From: Gammaproteobacteria bacterium
Lineage (GTDB): Bacteria; Pseudomonadota; Gammaproteobacteria; UBA4575
Reading direction: 5' to 3'
Assembly (NCBI GenBank): GCA_965221955.1
Contig: CBDCTA010000006.1
Span: 1-48,476 of the forward strand
Length of the DNA: 48,476 bases
Of the stretch, positions 1 to 6,012 are shown piece after piece. Each line of letters begins with the position of its first letter. The first letter of the stretch is position 1. The translations under genes were made by a program, and so were the position numbers. The notes below the pieces were generated by a model that ran no database searches, was not told the origin of the DNA, and was given only the letters and a program-made list of their open reading frames with translations.

Positions 1-56
1 ACTGAGTAAAATTAAAAAATAGACAATATCGATAAATTACAATAATAAAATCAGGA

Positions 57-635
57 ATGAGAAAAGTGCATTTTTCAAAATATGTGCTATTTGTTTTTAT
101 ACTTTATACACCCTTCCATAAAGCACTTGCCACTAATGAAAGTGAAAGTATAAATCATAACTTATATAATGCATTTTATTCTGCGATTACGTCTGACAGT
201 TTTATAGAAATAAAAGAATTCTTACAATTTGGGATTGATCTTAATCACAAGTACAACGGCGATTTAACACCATTAATGATAGCCGCAAATTTTGAAAGTG
301 AACGATCTGTAAAAACTTTGATCGATTTGGGTGCAAATACAGAACTTGTATCCAAAGAAAAGATGACTGCACTCGATTATGCAGAAAAAACAAATAACAA
401 AGCAATAATTTCGATTCTTCAAAGATATTCATTCAATAACAAACCATTAGTGAAGGAAATTCAATATTACTTAAAAATATTAAATTACAATACAGGTAAA
501 ATTGATGGCGTCCTTGGCAGAAAAACGGTTTCAGCATTGAAAAAGTTTGCTAAAGATACTAAACAAGCACATCCAGCCGAAATATCCCAAAGACAAGTAG
601 AAATACTAAAAAATACTTATTTTTATCTCAATTAA
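57..635 (+). CDS. Exported ankyrin-repeat protein with C-terminal peptidoglycan-binding (PG_binding_1-like) domain
   Basis: Hydrophobic N-terminus ending in ALA (signal peptide); ankyrin motifs GDLTPLMIAA..V..LI..GAN and MTALDYA; C-terminal VKEIQYYL..LNY..GKIDGVLG.KT..ALKKF. Confidence 0.75.
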   Translation: MRKVHFSKYVLFVFILYTPFHKALATNESESINHNLYNAFYSAITSDSFIEIKEFLQFGIDLNHKYNGDLTPLMIAANFESERSVKTLIDLGANTELVSKEKMTALDYAEKTNNKAIISILQRYSFNNKPLVKEIQYYLKILNYNTGKIDGVLGRKTVSALKKFAKDTKQAHPAEISQRQVEILKNTYFYLN

Positions 636-659
636 AGCATCACGATAAACAAAAGATAA

Positions 660-787
660 GCTCAAGGAAGTGAGCACAGGGATGTGCGAATAAGAAAGCA
701 TCATGGAAGACGACCTACATGGATGTGGCTTATTAGAGCAATGCAGGAGCAGTTGCCAAGGAGCAATTTTCTGCCGCAACAGATTAA
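660..787 (+). repeat. GGA-hairpin repeat element, copy 1 (CsrA/RsmA-site-like array; 51-bp core with 62-bp insert at 713-774)
   Basis: Six GGA motifs, mostly in hairpin loops (GCTCA-AGGAAG-TGAGC, GCAC-AGGGAT-GTGC, CTAC-ATGGAT-GTGG, TGC-AGGA-GCA); core aligns ungapped to 3265-3364 after removing the inserts. Confidence 0.75.
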
Positions 788-1045
788 TGTCTGCAATAGT
801 TTAACTATTACTAGTCTACAAACTTAAACGCAATATCAAAAAGAGCTAACATGCCATTTATAAACCAGAAGCATATTCTAAGCCAGATTGATCAGCGGAG
901 CCTCTTGGTTTAAGCACATGCGATTCTTCTAAACTGTGCGCCCAAATTAAACCTTTTATATCAATCACACCTTTCAGTTCTTCGCCATTTAAGTGCAGGT
1001 TGTATTGTAAATATTATCATAGATCGCACACTCGCCTACGATGTC

Positions 1046-1077
1046 TATAAAAAAGAGAGCGCTCAGCTCTTTTTATT
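1046..1077. terminator. Possible intrinsic (bidirectional) terminator hairpin
   Basis: A-tract, AGAGC-gctca-GCTCT stem, then T-tract; the stem is short. Confidence 0.35.
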
Positions 1078-1248
1078 GCAATCAGCAACCATTCTTCTGT
1101 GAATAGTAACAATCTGTCATTTTAAAAAGCTAGAGCTCATATTGTTAGTATAAATTTTGCTAACTATTACAGCTTAAAAGCTCTAAATCATTCAAATTGA
1201 TCTAATAGCTGTATTTACTTAATACTCAAAAAATACCAATAAATTCTC

Positions 1249-2467
1249 ATGAAAAAATACATATACCTTATAAGCTCTACACTATTAATCATATTTGTAC
1301 TTAATGCATGTGCAACTCAGAATCTAAGTTCGTCTAAAGCGAATAACCCATTACAGATTGATTTGGCATTAGAACGCGAAGCGAATATAACTAAAAGTTT
1401 TCAGGTAGACACCGGTGATTTTTTCACTGCAAACATTTTTGGTAGCAATCAACCCAAACTGATTGAACACGATGAATATTACCAAGTTTCAGTACCAATC
1501 GGCGCCGACATTAACGCCGAGTGTTTTGTATATAACACTGCTTATGATACGGCAGCAAGCTTAATGAGATTGTTCAACGGATCTTTGGGTGCAATGGAAA
1601 AAACAAAGATACACCATATCGATGCAGGTACATTTAAAGACATGCCTTATCTGTATCAAGAAAACATGTATTTGACCAAACAAAATAAAGTTGGAGTACT
1701 AAAAAGCAATCTCTATACCTTTAGACTCCTCATTGTTACTTTGCATACACGATACTCCTGGATACCGCAGCACATTTAAAAAGATGGCTTCAAGTTTTGC
1801 GCGTTCTATTAATATACAACATGCAGCAAAAGAAAATTGGCAACGCGAAGAAATTCTAGTGTGGACATTAAAAGACATGAAGGTAGGCTTTACTTCAAGT
1901 CGCGCGGTACCTGATGAAAATGGCGACATTAAGAATGTAATTGAAACTGCTTTGTTAATTCCTCGCTCTGAAGATGAAGCGTTAACACACGACGAATACA
2001 ATCTCACATGGGAACAACCTAATGGTGAGTTAATTAATGGACGCTATTCAGAAGCAGAAAATGGCGAACTCAAAATCAATGTAACCCTTGACTCAAATGA
2101 GCAAGGTGCATATCACGTATCTGGAATGTTTCAAGGCAAACAAATCGATTCACCAGTAAAAACTAAAGAAAGCGTAGATGGCCCCTTCTACCAGCAACGT
2201 GAAATGGTACGTGCAGCTGCATCAGCGAGTGGGCAATCAAAACCATTGCATATCAACACATATGTACCTTCATTGAACCCGTTGGAAACGATGGAGTTAA
2301 GCGCCAAACCTACTGGCGAACTGGTTGATGGTCACCCTGAATATGAAATGTTGTTTTTAGGTATGAAAGCAATTTCTGTTGTGGATGACCAAGGAAGTAA
2401 ATCGATGGATCTTGAAATGGGCCCATTAAATATTCAACTTTCTCGAGCTTATATTAACGAAAAGTAA
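1249..2467 (+). CDS. Hypothetical lipoprotein (~405 aa), split by a +1 indel in the A run at 1701-1705
   Basis: Lipobox LNAC after a hydrophobic stretch; removing one A joins ORF 1249..1779 to ORF 1733..2467 (…VGVLK-AISIPLDSSLLLCIHDTPGY…). Confidence 0.65.
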
Positions 2468-2481
2468 AGTATGTACGCACA

Positions 2482-3258
2482 ATGCACATACTTAGCTACG
2501 TTGTAATCATTGTATTGTGGCTGTTAAATGCTAGTGTATTAACAGCCCAAGACAATACTTTGTTTATTGGGCAAATGCCTGTTGAAGATGTGCGAAGTAA
2601 AGCCGACAAACATCTTCCACTTCAGTATGAAATTATTCATGCAAACCCCTCAGCGATACAGCAACACCTAGCTAGATGGTTTCCTCAAAATGATCTGCAA
2701 TCGACTTCAATCGCAATAAAAGCAGAACACTACCCACAAGCGAAAGACACAATTGAAGACGAACTGTATCGCGCTTCAACCTTCTTAATCGATTACCAAG
2801 AGCCATCGATAGAAGCATTAACAGAAAAAATTACCAGTGCATATGGAAATACACCCAGCACTAAAGACCTTGAACAGTTTGTATACGATTTTATTAGTGA
2901 TAAAAATTATGCAAATGGATTTGATATTGCATCTCAAGTAGCGAAATCACAAGAAGGAGATTGCACTGAACATGCTGTATTACTCGCCGCTTTGCTACGC
3001 ATGTATAGTTATCCAGCAAGAGTCGTCACAGGTGTATATATATCACTAGATGAACCTAAGCTTGCCTATGGGCATGCATGGACGGAGTACTATGAAGATA
3101 ATAAATGGACTGGACTTGATGCGACACGTATTAGCCAAGAAGTTGATCATCTGCATATACCCTTTGACATCATTGAAAATGAAACCATCGGCTATTCGAT
3201 CGAATTAATAAAATTAGCCCAAACATTAGCGATCGAAAAAATAATCATCAGCGATTAA
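2482..3258 (+). CDS. Exported transglutaminase-like (Cys-His-Asp) protein
   Basis: GDCTEHAVLLAALLR..YPARVVTG, HAWTEYY and W..LDAT motifs; N-terminal signal peptide. Confidence 0.85.
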   Translation: MHILSYVVIIVLWLLNASVLTAQDNTLFIGQMPVEDVRSKADKHLPLQYEIIHANPSAIQQHLARWFPQNDLQSTSIAIKAEHYPQAKDTIEDELYRASTFLIDYQEPSIEALTEKITSAYGNTPSTKDLEQFVYDFISDKNYANGFDIASQVAKSQEGDCTEHAVLLAALLRMYSYPARVVTGVYISLDEPKLAYGHAWTEYYEDNKWTGLDATRISQEVDHLHIPFDIIENETIGYSIELIKLAQTLAIEKIIISD

Positions 3259-3264
3259 TATGTA

Positions 3265-3364
3265 AGCACATGGACGATGTGCAGATGCACAAGTGTCGCG
3301 GGAGACAGGATGTCGGGAGCGACCGTGCGAATATGAGCTCGTCAAGGAAGACGCAACAGATTAA
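3265..3364 (+). repeat. GGA-hairpin repeat element, copy 2 (51-bp core with 47-bp insert at 3277-3323)
   Basis: Five GGA motifs; hairpins GTCGC-GGGA-GAC-AGGAT-GTC-GGGA-GCGAC and CGTC-AAGGAA-GACG; shares the 3' end CAACAGATTAA with copy 1. Confidence 0.75.
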
Positions 3365-3457
3365 AGTTTGAAGATGTTACAACTTCTGCTATTCAACAAA
3401 TTATAAGTGTCGTATTTTCTAATCAATAAATGTTCCTACCACTTCTAGATAAATCAA

Positions 3458-5239
3458 CTACTCTTCCGCCTTCGGCTTAGTTCTTTTCCTAATATGCAAC
3501 TCTTTCAACTGCCTTTCACTCACTTCTGCCGGCGCATCGGTAAGCAAACACGTTGCGTTTTGAGTTTTCGGGAATGGAATGACATCACGAATGGAACTGC
3601 TTCCTGTCATAAGCATGACTAAACGATCCAACCCGAAAGCGATACCACCATGTGGTGGCGCGCCAAATTTTAATGCTTTTAATAAGAAACCAAATTTTTC
3701 TTCTGCCTCTTGTTCTTCTATACCCAACACTTCAAACACCGCTGATTGCATATCTTGATTATGAATACGCACTGAACCACCGCCGACTTCGGTGCCATTT
3801 AACACCATGTCATAAGCTTTACTCAATGCTTCACCGGGGTTGGCTTTAAGTTCTTCTGCACTGCATGTAGGTGCGCGGTAAACGGATGATGCAATGCAGA
3901 CCAACGTTTTGCATCCGCATCCCATTCAAACATGGGGAAGTCGACTACCCAAAGGGGTTTCCAACCTTCTTCTACCATATTTAAATCATGACCCAGTTTT
4001 ACGCGCAATGCACCGAGTGCGGCATTCACTACCGTTTTCTTATCGGCACCGAAGAATAATAGATCTCCATTTTCTACTTTTGAAACTTCAACGAACTGTT
4101 GAATGACATCATCGGATAAGAATTTTAATATCGGTGACTGCAAGCCTTCTTTAAGATCACTTACATCATTACATTTGATATACGCCAAGCCTTTTGCACC
4201 GTATTGGCCTAACGTAGTCGGTATAGCCATCAATTTCTTTTCTAGAAATGTTCGAACCTTGCGGCACTTTTAACATGGCTATGCGGCTTTCCGGATCATT
4301 CGCCGGGCCATTGAACACTTTGAACTCTACATTTTTCATTACATCGGTAATGTCGATGAATTCTAATGGTATGCGTAAGTCGGGCTTGTCACTTCCAAAA
4401 CGATGCATGGCTTCTGCATAGGTCATTCTTGAGAAGGGGTTGTCTAATTCAACATTGCAGTTTTCTTTAAACGATTCACGCATCATGTCTTCCATAATGT
4501 TCATGATTTCATCTTGGTTCATGAAAGAAGTTTCAATATCCAACTGGGTGAATTCCGGTTGACGATCGGCACGCAAGTCTTCATCCCTGAAACAACGCAC
4601 AATTTGATAATAACGATCAAAGCCACTCATCATGAGTAACTGTTTAAACAATTGTGGCGATTGCGGTAACGCAAAAAACGAACCGGGTTGTGTACGACTG
4701 GGTACTAAATAATCGCGCGCACCTTCTGGTGTGGCTTTGGTGAGGATTGGTGTTTCGATATCTAGAAAACCTTGATTGTCTAAAAAATTGCGAATACCAC
4801 TAGCCACTTTTGCCTTAGCTCGGATACGTTCTTGCATAAAGGGACGACGTAAATCGACATAGCGATATTTCAATCGGTTTTCCTCATGTACATCGTCATC
4901 ATCTAATTGAAACGGCGGGGTATCCGATTCATTCAGCACTTCTAATTCTTTAGCGAGGACTTCGATTTGGCCTGTAGGTAAATCGGGGTTAATGGTGCCC
5001 TCTGGGCGCATGCGTACACGACCTTTGATGCGTAATACATATTCATTACGAATTTGTTCGGCAATGGAAAAAATCTCAGGGGTATCCGGATCAAACACCA
5101 CTTGAAGAATACCTTCGCGGTCGCGCAGATCAACAAAGATCACGCCACCGTGATCACGTCTTTTGTTCACCCAACCACAGGCTTCAACTTCCTTATCGAT
5201 CAACTTCTCGGTCACTTGACCGCAATAGTGAGTTCTCAT
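3458..5239 (-). CDS. aspS: Aspartate--tRNA ligase, split over three ORFs by two indels (~4210, ~3875)
   Basis: MRTHYCG start, [45 protein letters not shown] and [15 protein letters not shown]. Confidence 0.97.
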
Positions 5240-5341
5240 TCCTTACCTTATATATGTATGAATACCAAGCGGCAGATGGTACGGATTGCTCGTTGCCTAT
5301 GCAATATAGCTTACAGAGGTAGCCCTAATAAACAGACAGAT

Positions 5342-5710
5342 TTATTCGGCTGATTTTGACTTGGCTTTAGTAGATTTTTTTGTTGAGGACTTGCTATCAG
5401 TCTTTTTTGAATCGATCTTTTTCTTATCTGTGCTTTTGCCGTCTTTATTCTTGCCCCCACCTTGGCTAGATTTTGAATCGGCTTTCTTTTCGCTATCCTT
5501 CGAACTTAAATTACGCTTATTATCGCTATCTGATTTGAAGTCAGTCTCGTACCAACCGGTGCCACTTAAGCGAAAACTAGGCGCTGAAACCAGTTTTTTC
5601 AATTTTAATTTTCCACATTCTGGGCACTTCTTTAAAATCGGATCGCTGACTTTTTGCAGCTCTTCAATGACAGCTTCACAAGCTTGGCACTGGTATTCGT
5701 ATATTGGCAT
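5342..5710 (-). CDS. FmdB-family zinc-ribbon protein with Lys/Ser-rich tail
   Basis: MPIYEYQCQAC...CPECG...F.LSGTGWYETDF; usual position upstream of aspS. Confidence 0.9.
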   Translation of the reverse strand: MPIYEYQCQACEAVIEELQKVSDPILKKCPECGKLKLKKLVSAPSFRLSGTGWYETDFKSDSDNKRNLSSKDSEKKADSKSSQGGGKNKDGKSTDKKKIDSKKTDSKSSTKKSTKAKSKSAE

Positions 5711-5712
5711 GC

Positions 5713-6012
5713 TTATAAAATTTTAAAGTTTTTTAAATCTGTAAGTTCAATTTGTTGGTGACTTAAAGTTTCACAATTTACATTATCCACTACAGCATTT
5801 CTTGGACCTTGCTGCAGCCATTGCTTGAGCTGTTCAATAGCATCCTTGTCACCGTGCGCGAGTACTTCGACATTTCCATCGATTAAATTTTTTGCATAAC
5901 CATTGATATTAAGACGCAAAGCTTGTTCGCGCGTTGAGGCTCGAAAAAATACACCTTGTACTTTACCTGCAATAATGCAGCGTACCGTGACCATATTTTC
6001 ACCCATATCCAT
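5713..6012 (-). CDS. acyP: Acylphosphatase (start probably at 6012, 6006 or 5994 rather than 6081)
   Basis: GKVQGVFFRAST...GYAKNL.DGNVEV...GP..AVV. Confidence 0.9.
   Translation of the reverse strand: MDMGENMVTVRCIIAGKVQGVFFRASTREQALRLNINGYAKNLIDGNVEVLAHGDKDAIEQLKQWLQQGPRNAVVDNVNCETLSHQQIELTDLKNFKIL

Follow-up and report, generated by a model that had tools for sequence, protein, structure and literature searches.

A lineage-specific mosaic of intergenic repeats with nested GGA-loop hairpin modules in a gammaproteobacterial genome

Small interspersed repeats are common in bacteria, and the way in which they move, as well as any role they may have, is usually unclear. The present analysis concerns two such repeats in a stretch of 48,476 nucleotides (hereafter referred to as the window) from a Gammaproteobacteria bacterium of the lineage UBA4575 (GenBank assembly GCA_965221955.1, contig CBDCTA010000006.1). 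The two elements, copy 1 and copy 2, belong to a repeat family designated here as K, which is part of a lineage-specific mosaic intergenic repeat system, and each of them carries, in or next to one of its hairpins, a different small module that itself consists of GGA-loop hairpins. The data presented below support the view that discrete modules are nested at CpG dinucleotides. The explanation favoured for the system as a whole, namely K copies into which modules have been inserted at CpG, spread of the resulting composites and a role in binding the protein CsrA in the 3' tails of messenger RNAs (mRNAs), is thought probable on balance, with modest confidence.

Copies 1 and 2 as members of the K family

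The genome of the window, referred to as G000, is a 2.69-Mb assembly of 29 contigs (completeness 96.6%, contamination figure 4.3%), the window being its contig C6. A search of G000 with an nhmmer profile built from 16 K copies (E<1e-3) gave 60 matches, and an Infernal covariance model built from 40 copies gave 64. For four of the 60 the contig is a duplicate of another one (99.5-99.7% identity), so that the distinct loci number about 56. The family unit is approximately 64 nt long and consists of the start GTGAGC, a first hairpin (5 bp, loop NGGA), the linker GAATAWGAG, a second hairpin (5-6 bp, loop NGGA) and CAGATTAAAGTTAGG. In the usual arrangement K is followed by an optional linker, L (about 48 nt, 16 matches), and then by a 28-nt palindrome, P, whose arms ATGTCCGCT and AGCGGACAT enclose an asymmetric loop of 10 nt. 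Intact P is present in 132 copies in G000, as compared to 4 in a shuffled genome, and is found within 120 nt downstream of 27 of the 60 K copies, with one orientation in all 20 cases that are readable.

The stems of K covary: 58 cells of the alignment are changed on both sides of a pair, as against 20.6 in shuffles, a value reached by none of 500 shuffles, and pairing holds in 88% of the cells, compared to 10-45% when the partner is slid. The constant positions of the loop are A, G, G and A, of which A11 is invariant and G13, G14 and A15 are at least 90% conserved; of 57 hairpin-1 loops, 25 have T, 22 have G and 10 have A as the variable base of A-NGGA-U. The types of hairpin 1 and hairpin 2 occur in all combinations.

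The initial annotation of the window had described the two loci as copies of one 51-bp core carrying different inserts. When 713-776 and 3277-3325 are removed, the two 51-nt strings do align without gaps at 43 of 51 positions, a level reached by none of 20,000 random pairs of 51-mers from the window. The flanking CG dinucleotides lie at 711-712, 775-776, 3275-3276 and 3324-3325, with 62 and 47 nt between them, as described, and the GGA-hairpin make-up is borne out by six GGA and no TCC in copy 1 (660-787) and five GGA and no TCC in copy 2 (3264-3364). Both loci are matched by nhmmer and Infernal models made from other K copies, and in a short-word BLAST search of both against G000 each part recurs elsewhere. 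The core stands as a repeat but not in its length, the family unit being the longer one given above. The features of the two loci are as follows.

660..675, + strand: small GGA-loop hairpin GCTCA/AGGAAG/TGAGC, overlapping the start of the core (read from the sequence)
670..712, + strand: K copy 1, 5' part (nhmmer 669-712, E 3.7e-7; Infernal 668-743, E 3.2e-7; family alignment)
713..776, + strand: insert 1, an internally deleted member of the D/E family described below (nhmmer D model, 715-776, model positions 36-96, E 2.9e-12)
777..800, + strand: K tail CAACAGATTAA, followed by what is probably a degenerate left half of P (AATGTCTGC..AATAG) (comparison with the K tail and the P consensus)
3262..3276, + strand: K copy 2, 5' arm and loop of hairpin 1 (GTAAGC start, GCACA, TGGA, CG) (sequence and alignment row)
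3277..3325, + strand: insert 2, a copy of module M3 with two nested GGA hairpins (nhmmer M3 model 3278-3325, E 2.5e-14)
3325..3373, + strand: K copy 2, 3' part (nhmmer 3325-3371, E 2.9e-7; Infernal 3313-3371, E 4.9e-7)

In copy 1 the GTGAGC start is followed by hairpin 1 at 674-687 (loop GGGA), the linker at 688-696 and hairpin 2 at 699-712, with GGA in its loop; insert 1 begins with ACCT and a GGA hairpin and ends with ..TTTTCTGCCG. In copy 2 the 3' arm of hairpin 1, GTGC, lies beyond the insert at 3325-3328 and leads into the linker GAATATGAG, hairpin 2 at 3340-3353 (loop AAGGAA) and the tail CAACAGATTAAAGTT. The first loop of insert 2 reads GA and not GGA, and the contigs of other sequencing runs add G or GG behind 3283.

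Inverted repeats of 8 nt or more are absent from 640-830 and from 3245-3400, in line with the earlier description, in which no terminal inverted repeats were visible. No Rfam family reaches its gathering score anywhere in the window, and none of relevance appears at E<=10 in 500-3600, where the one match, to a ctRNA (E=5), is attributable to chance; canonical K copies likewise give two chance matches only (E about 7).

K was found in all 14 congeneric genomes (4-71 matches each) and in three of ten other genera of the taxonomic family (29, 2 and 1 matches), and in none of 16 other families of the class. The exact K pattern was matched by 61 stretches when 185,579 species genomes were searched, and all except one of these belong to 10 uncultured gammaproteobacterial metagenome-assembled genomes; the pattern was not found in viral contigs, nor the K-L-P unit in plasmids or phages. 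Among ten intervals orthologous to one that carries K in a relative, G000 has K in six and lacks it in four. One K that is orthologous in two species shows a compensatory paired change in hairpin 1 (arms GTAC versus GCGC). No description of the K family or of CsrA-type dispersed repeats was found in the literature on CsrA and repeats and on intergenic mosaic elements, the supplements of which were outside the coverage.

Insert modules and their nesting at CpG

The proposal that the inserts are dispersed modules is upheld, as both belong to repeat families that recur with the same ends inside related elements. Neither is unique to the locus, their CG boundaries are consistent elsewhere and neither fully matches a described small RNA (sRNA) or a described family of repetitive extragenic palindromes (REPs). 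Junctions were counted in G000 together with 137 loci of relatives (3.32 Mb).

Insert 2 belongs to module M3, with seven matches in G000 and 31 distinct copies in the combined set. In 25 of the 31 it occupies the same place in K, following the loop of hairpin 1 and preceding its 3' arm, and the remainder stand alone or in another hairpin. The left junction GGA-CGA, which places CG before the module and is also that of copy 2 (GGACGA), is common to 27 of the 31. The two bases after the last constant base of M3 are CG in 22 copies, CA in six, TG in two and CC in one; the second of these bases lies in the host stem, as the first base of its 3' arm, and changes in covariation with the 5' arm. Of the 25 M3 copies hosted by K, at least 12 are spanned by host arms with perfect complementarity, in four arm types (GTAC/GTAC, GCAC/GTGC, GCGC/GCGC, GCAT/ATGC).

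Insert 1 belongs to a second family, D, which has 15 matches in G000 and 26 distinct copies in the combined set and occurs in two forms, a 43-nt core and a form of about 90 nt with another module, E, lodged in its second hairpin's loop. According to our own assignment of the 26 hosts, 16 D copies lie in the loop of P, six in K hairpin 2, one in K hairpin 1 and three elsewhere. CG precedes D in 23 of 26 copies and the end is YCG in 19 of 25, while the start varies with the host, being ACCT in K and ACCA or ACCG in P. Insert 1 has the start of a K-hosted D and the end common to all D and lacks about 34 nt of the 5' part, and is therefore a deletion derivative. E is represented by 12 copies, with CG before the module in nine and at its end in ten; its hosts are the D hairpin (seven copies), either hairpin of M3 (loci L102 and L119) and other hairpins.

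In every nested case the GGA of guest and host are on the same strand, and the orientation relative to the host is constant in all 16 P-hosted D and all 25 K-hosted M3. Each of the nine types of hairpin in K, D, E, M3 and a further hairpin, F, has a GGA loop; P and L have none. One array on contig C29 (283150-283450), located directly after an open reading frame (ORF) of about 40 codons, consists of M3, an F hairpin, E, an intrinsic terminator and a second F hairpin, the last of which holds another GGA-hairpin insert that is flanked by an 8-nt direct repeat, GTATGCTG. This array could be a GGA-rich RNA derived from a 3' untranslated region.

The initial annotation had further held that the modules insert at a CG, which becomes duplicated. 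In the window, GGAAGACGCAACAGATTAA is intact in copy 2 and is split after GACG by insert 1 in copy 1, and the hairpin-2 variant common to the two copies is found in no other K of G000; they are therefore close paralogues differing by insert 1. A filled and an empty site are also found at orthologous positions after the same small ORF and terminator, where the congener G004 has GTACATGGACG-M3-TAATG and G000 has GTACATGGACGTAC, with a single CG. This pair, which is the strongest single item of evidence, the discreteness of the modules and the frequencies of CG before M3, D and E given above support the nesting of modules at CG. The claim of duplication fares less well, in that the CG that ends the module in 22 of 31 M3, 19 of 25 D and 10 of 12 E has more than one possible origin. 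Because the second G of M3 composites covaries with the host stem, and is replaced by A in six of 31, the CG flanks fit an insertion between C and G; duplication of a CG target, insertion between C and G and a CG borne by the module fit the data equally well.

For the genes beside the window loci, at 57-635 and 1249-3258, no match at the DNA level was found in any of the 14 congeners. In the contigs of four public runs no clean joint removing either insert was found over 1-6000; a single joint 694->3328 (depth 2, side 28, with 19 other letters in between) most likely derives from a different copy of the repeat. Within aligned pairs of strain-variant contigs of G000, the blocks of which hold few elements, there is one indel of 12 nt or more and it is not a module. 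K with M3 is represented in relatives by 17 matches in G001, 14 in G004, 8 in G010, 9 in G007 and none in G014. The multi-copy filled forms, together with the shared subtype of K-hosted D, suggest that the composites have spread as units.

In the mechanism proposed, the target would be a CpG located where a hairpin loop ends on its 3' side, modules being inserted into this dinucleotide or beside it by a trans-acting activity that is neither RAYT nor an IS110 enzyme; the filled composites would then spread as units, and recombination between copies would shuffle them further. Several observations weigh against the favoured explanation. Plain K has a CG at the right place in only one of 40 copies for hairpin 1 and in six of 40 for hairpin 2, and most empty K have GGAT, not GGAC, at the M3 site, so that the filled form is not simply the empty form plus the insert. 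E is located just 5' of the GGA in the host loop, and its empty hosts have no CG. The filled composites form subfamilies, for which few independent insertions are needed. Chimeric junctions occur as well: in G007 a D copy has the left half of P on one side and the K tail on the other, and at C5:8682 in G000 the 5' half of D is joined to the 3' half of K. The folding of the + strand is unremarkable (z of -1.05 for copy 1 and -1.44 for copy 2), and with -1.00 and -3.40, respectively, on the minus strand folding energy does not discriminate. Mismatches in hairpin 1 are G.U in 10 and A.C in 8 cases, which gives no strand signal. To these must be added the absence from G000 of the mobilising enzymes searched for, discussed below.

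A further chimeric junction is found at C29:609502, where the start of M3 is joined to D, and these junctions show that recombination between copies also builds composites. Recombination might even be the sole process, the composites arising by unequal or illegitimate exchange and by gene conversion at shared GGA loops and ACG/CCG edges, with no insertion step, so that the inserts would be segments exchanged between mosaic copies. This would account for the three junctions, for the free combination of K hairpin-1 and hairpin-2 types and for the cassettes of strain-variant contigs, which differ exactly at P. It is nevertheless considered unlikely, since the ends of the modules are identical in unrelated hosts (K hairpins 1 and 2, the P loop, the D hairpin and the M3 hairpins), the orientation relative to the host is constant for D in P and M3 in K, and what distinguishes the two members of the orthologous pair is precisely one M3, at one CG.

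As regards the activity that would mobilise the modules, the earlier statement that no transposase is visible nearby extends to the genome for the families searched: PF01797 (Y1/RAYT) and PF01548 (IS110) are absent from G000, other transposase families not having been searched. Within the genus, PF01797 is present in one of 15 genomes (G001 only, two genes) and PF01548 in two. G001 has the most K matches (71) and is the sole genome of the genus with Y1 transposase genes; neither of these genes (L183 and L184, at G001:C1:849465-849791 and 2385767-2386090) has K, P, M3, D or L within 1.5 kb. Self-comparison of G000 revealed no multi-copy segment resembling an insertion sequence (IS).

Elements of the IS200/IS605 group insert next to a fixed short sequence, in one orientation, and have no inverted ends. 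In following CG in one orientation, the modules described here would be compatible with elements derived from them, a two-base target being too short to be diagnostic. [quoted passage not shown] It is also suggested by the extragenic position, high-copy palindromes and mosaic build, which resemble those of bacterial interspersed mosaic elements (BIMEs), and by the coincidence in G001 of Y1 genes with the largest number of K. It is nonetheless regarded as very improbable, given that PF01797 is missing from 14 of the 15 genomes of the genus, among which G010, G014 and G000 (the last at 96.6% completeness) are closed or close to it, that the Y1 genes of G001 are remote from all the elements and PF01548 is confined to two genomes, and that neither terminal inverted repeats nor a multi-copy IS-like repeat in the G000 self-comparison could be found.

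Position of K behind genes and a putative link to CsrA

All 60 K copies of G000 are intergenic. Their gene context was assessed with a crude ORF-based gene call (2,658 ORFs, 88% coding), and the upstream gene was found to be co-oriented with K in 47 of the 60 (binomial p = 1.2e-5), or in 43 of 56 when strain-duplicate contigs are excluded. By type of gap, 25 copies lie between convergent genes, 22 between co-directional genes in sense, eight between co-directional genes in antisense and five between divergent genes, the background gaps of G000 being 353 convergent, 1,925 co-directional and 351 divergent. K overlaps or abuts the upstream stop codon in 15 of the 47 co-oriented cases. Agreement of its orientation with the local GC skew is seen in 33 of 56 copies, the figure for genes in general being 63%. 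The orientation of K thus tracks the upstream gene and not GC skew, which points to a link with transcription and not with replication. The two window copies are preceded by the following ORFs.

57..635, + strand: ORF upstream of copy 1, with its stop 25-35 nt before copy 1, which lies in the sense-strand tail
2482..3258, + strand: ORF upstream of copy 2, with its stop 4 nt before copy 2

Copy 2 sits between convergent genes, aspS being on the minus strand from 3458 (homology in relatives from about 3463). No promoter-like or terminator-like site was found on the + strand beside either copy; the stem at 660-675 is also caught by the terminator scan on the minus strand.

These positions bear on the possibility that K is a structured RNA of mRNA tails, in which M3, D and E are helices that have grown or been duplicated in loops, adding protein-binding hairpins, and are not mobile DNA. 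Covariation of both stems, and also of the host stem across M3, is in keeping with this, as are the sense orientation behind genes, the retention of orthologous K with a compensatory change, and the placing of extra modules in loops, where the fold tolerates them, with a GGA loop on every module hairpin. The number of copies (about 60 per genome) and their turnover, with G000 lacking K in four of ten orthologous intervals, argue in the opposite direction, and so do the recurrence of identical M3, D and E sequences both in unrelated hosts and without any host and the lack of an excess of G.U over A.C. Altogether, we give this possibility little credence.

Returning to the reading of the modules as mobile DNA, a function of the transcribed elements is suggested by their loops. 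The consensus selected for CsrA by systematic evolution of ligands by exponential enrichment (SELEX), RUACARGGAUGU, has invariant ACA and GGA, with GGA in a hairpin loop (PMC4347634). Hairpin 1 of copy 1 is ACAGGGAUGU, and the constants of the family are A-N-G-G-A. The motif ACA.GGATGT is found 34 times in the 333 kb of intergenic sequence of G000 (12% of the genome), as against 15 times in 2.36 Mb of coding sequence, and four control motifs have 0-4 intergenic matches. G000 has one csrA gene, at C2:164402-164557, for a CsrA of 63 aa. Sorting of perfect 5-bp hairpins by loop content gave no genome-wide excess of GGA, and a sequence-based catalogue was used instead, an 11-mer repeat map of G000 having been discarded as too noisy; among hairpins with 4-bp stems the intergenic excess of GGA loops is modest (444; similar trinucleotides range from 233 to 428, and AGA and GAA reach 662-686). 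Since the invariant positions of the K loop are those of the CsrA recognition core (A-N-GGA in a loop), and in view of the GGA loops, the enrichment of the motif, the csrA gene and the sense orientation behind genes, binding of CsrA is the most likely putative function of the elements when transcribed. They would act as CsrA-binding modules in mRNA 3' tails, and nesting would raise the number of binding hairpins per transcript.

One-strand arrays of GGA-loop hairpins fitting the CsrA SELEX ligand are also a property of the sponge RNAs CsrB, RsmY and RsmZ, and copies 1 and 2 could be imagined as paralogous sRNA genes of this type that differ in their number of GGA hairpins. The six and five GGA on one strand, with none on the other, and the fit of the hairpins to the CsrA consensus would be so explained. 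However, sponge RNAs are encoded by one to a few genes, each with its own promoter and terminator, whereas K is dispersed in about 60 copies in mRNA tails with neither signal. No promoter-like or terminator-like site accompanies the window copies on the + strand, both of which start within 35 nt of the upstream stop, and no Rfam family matches them. Such an identity is hardly credible.

A bolder proposal may be made from the sequence data, namely that 45-100-nt A-NGGA-U hairpin cassettes home into loops at CpG, in one orientation and by means of no known REP or IS enzyme, building through their nesting a dispersed CsrA-binding load, able to evolve, on about 60 mRNA 3' tails per genome. It is put forward as a speculation and is itself held to be rather doubtful. 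If true, it would amount to a mobile post-transcriptional regulon in place of a dedicated sponge RNA. Should the CsrA link hold, the elements would illustrate the wiring of a regulon by the spread of ready-made binding sites into mRNA tails, and should the insertion rule hold, it would point to an undescribed way of moving very short DNA. The combination is unusual in that the parts are nested at a defined dinucleotide in hairpin loops, with no known mobilising enzyme of the two families searched, and the CsrA motif is carried on every module hairpin.

The wider mosaic and its relation to known repeats

The palindrome P has a further property, in that it marks exact joints of gene cassettes. 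The assembly of G000 holds more than one strain, with many contig pairs 94-99.8% identical over 1-11 kb (C19/C3, C14/C23, C10/C29, C6:33915-39468/C24, C12/C13, C11/C26 and C8/C18). In one comparison of strain-variant contigs (C14:4050-8600 with C23:10600-23550), the cassettes differ at P copies, one of 1.1 kb being present or absent and another being of 1.5 kb in one contig and 11 kb in the other. At two loci compared between species, the P that adjoins a conserved K differs in its loop, and additional P copies delimit extra cassettes; the loop of a flanking P can switch both variant and orientation. A conserved gene junction on C22 carries 0, 1 or 3 cassettes with differing sets of K, P and D in four genomes. 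As strain contigs differ by whole cassettes exactly at P, the P repeats are recombination joints, and the same repeat system thereby also shapes gene content.

Three side observations concern the surroundings of P. One K subfamily (tail ..CAGATTCAATATTYCTTTTAATAGA) sits within P and has on either side a direct repeat of some 21 nt made of the left arm and loop of P (G000 C22:166987-167120, C29:132250-132380, C14:4190-4310 and C29:609570-609690), which resembles a long target duplication spanning a dyad symmetry. Secondly, the K tail AAAGTTAGGT is followed after 6-9 nt by ATG, from which a short frame runs through L and P (M..RLGNSNQI.KMTANDPKRT.), P itself starting with ATG; examples are at G000 C29:312369-312440, C2:193085-193135 (minus strand) and C27:9706-9790. 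That this frame is coding is doubted because D insertions change it. Finally, the exact P pattern is present in two viral contigs (L188 and L189).

With regard to known repeats, the K system is viewed as a variant of the modular small interspersed repeats, the closest kinds being REP/BIME and BOX elements. The BIMEs of enterobacteria are mosaics of palindromic units, the REPs, and other motifs. In common with them, the K system has high-copy short extragenic palindromes arranged in mosaics, which are located behind genes, seldom occur in divergent gaps and are themselves targeted by further insertions. It differs in having no RAYT in G000 (one of 15 genomes of the genus has it, unlinked), in the absence of a GTAG-type tag from both P, as judged from its two arms, and K, with its GTGAGC start, and in its small hairpins with constant A-NGGA-U loops and modules nested in hairpins instead of side by side. 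Unlike those of MITEs, the ends of K (GTGAGC.. and ..AAAGTTAGG) are not complementary.

BOX elements of Streptococcus pneumoniae consist of boxA, a variable number of boxB and boxC, with terminal inverted repeats, target duplications and boxB in tandem (PMC3049150). They resemble the K system in being composites with a variable number of internal modules, in their predicted RNA fold and in an internal module that folds apart. They are unlike it in that the modules here are nested in loops, with no inverted ends and with a CpG junction. BOX elements are transcribed within mRNA tails, and insertion of small repeats into one another has been reported in the same work (PMC3049150).

QMITE2 of Coxiella burnetii is a repeat of 150-190 bp with inverted ends and direct repeats of 7-11 nt, associated with a GTAG REP that is targeted by IS1111, and is a source of small RNA (PMC5896051). 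Like K, it is a structured repeat located mainly in 3' untranslated regions, where it overlaps the last 1-10 bp of genes, with a REP-like palindrome as a target of further insertion and with long and short versions. It differs, in a comparison by description and not by sequence, in being larger and linked to IS1111, no gene of the IS1111 type being found here. YPAL/RU-2 of Yersinia is a single unit of 168 bp with target duplications that are variable and up to 26 bp long (PMC2229807). Shared traits are the lack of a terminal TA, the internal inverted repeats and targets that span or adjoin dyad symmetries, and one K subfamily is, in a comparable manner, flanked by a 21-nt repeat of the left half of P. 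In YPAL/RU-2 there is neither a nesting of 45-100-nt modules nor a rule of GGA loops.

The TwoAYGGAY RNA motif (RF01731) is found in Gammaproteobacteria and its function was untested in the original account (Weinberg et al. 2010, PMC2864571). Its two small hairpins with a GGA loop flanked by A and Y make it similar to K in idea. An assignment of K to this motif was rejected, as the RF01731 model matches none of 20 canonical K copies at E<=10 and nothing in the window. K also has a 9-nt linker and no enclosing stem, and fewer than half of its hairpin-1 loops fit AYGGAY. Two sub-threshold RF01731 loci that are not K occur in G000 at C5:52065-52230 and C29:69046-69208 (minus strand), scoring 36.2 and 31.3 bits where the gathering score is 43; in each of them two hairpins, with AAGGAU and AUGGAU loops, are enclosed by a long outer stem.

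Among the neighbours of the two window copies, one gene is split into the overlapping ORFs 1249-1779 and 1733-2467, and aspS into the overlapping ORFs 3458-3925, 3823-4233 and 4169-5239. The contigs of other runs have one or two bases fewer at 1701/1705, 3871-3877 and 4208, so that assembly errors or differences between strains, and not pseudogenes, may account for the frameshifts. The self-comparison of G000 also revealed perfect or near-perfect tandem repeats at C22:1-1926 and C29:662144-663592, with periods of about 339 and 294 nt, respectively.

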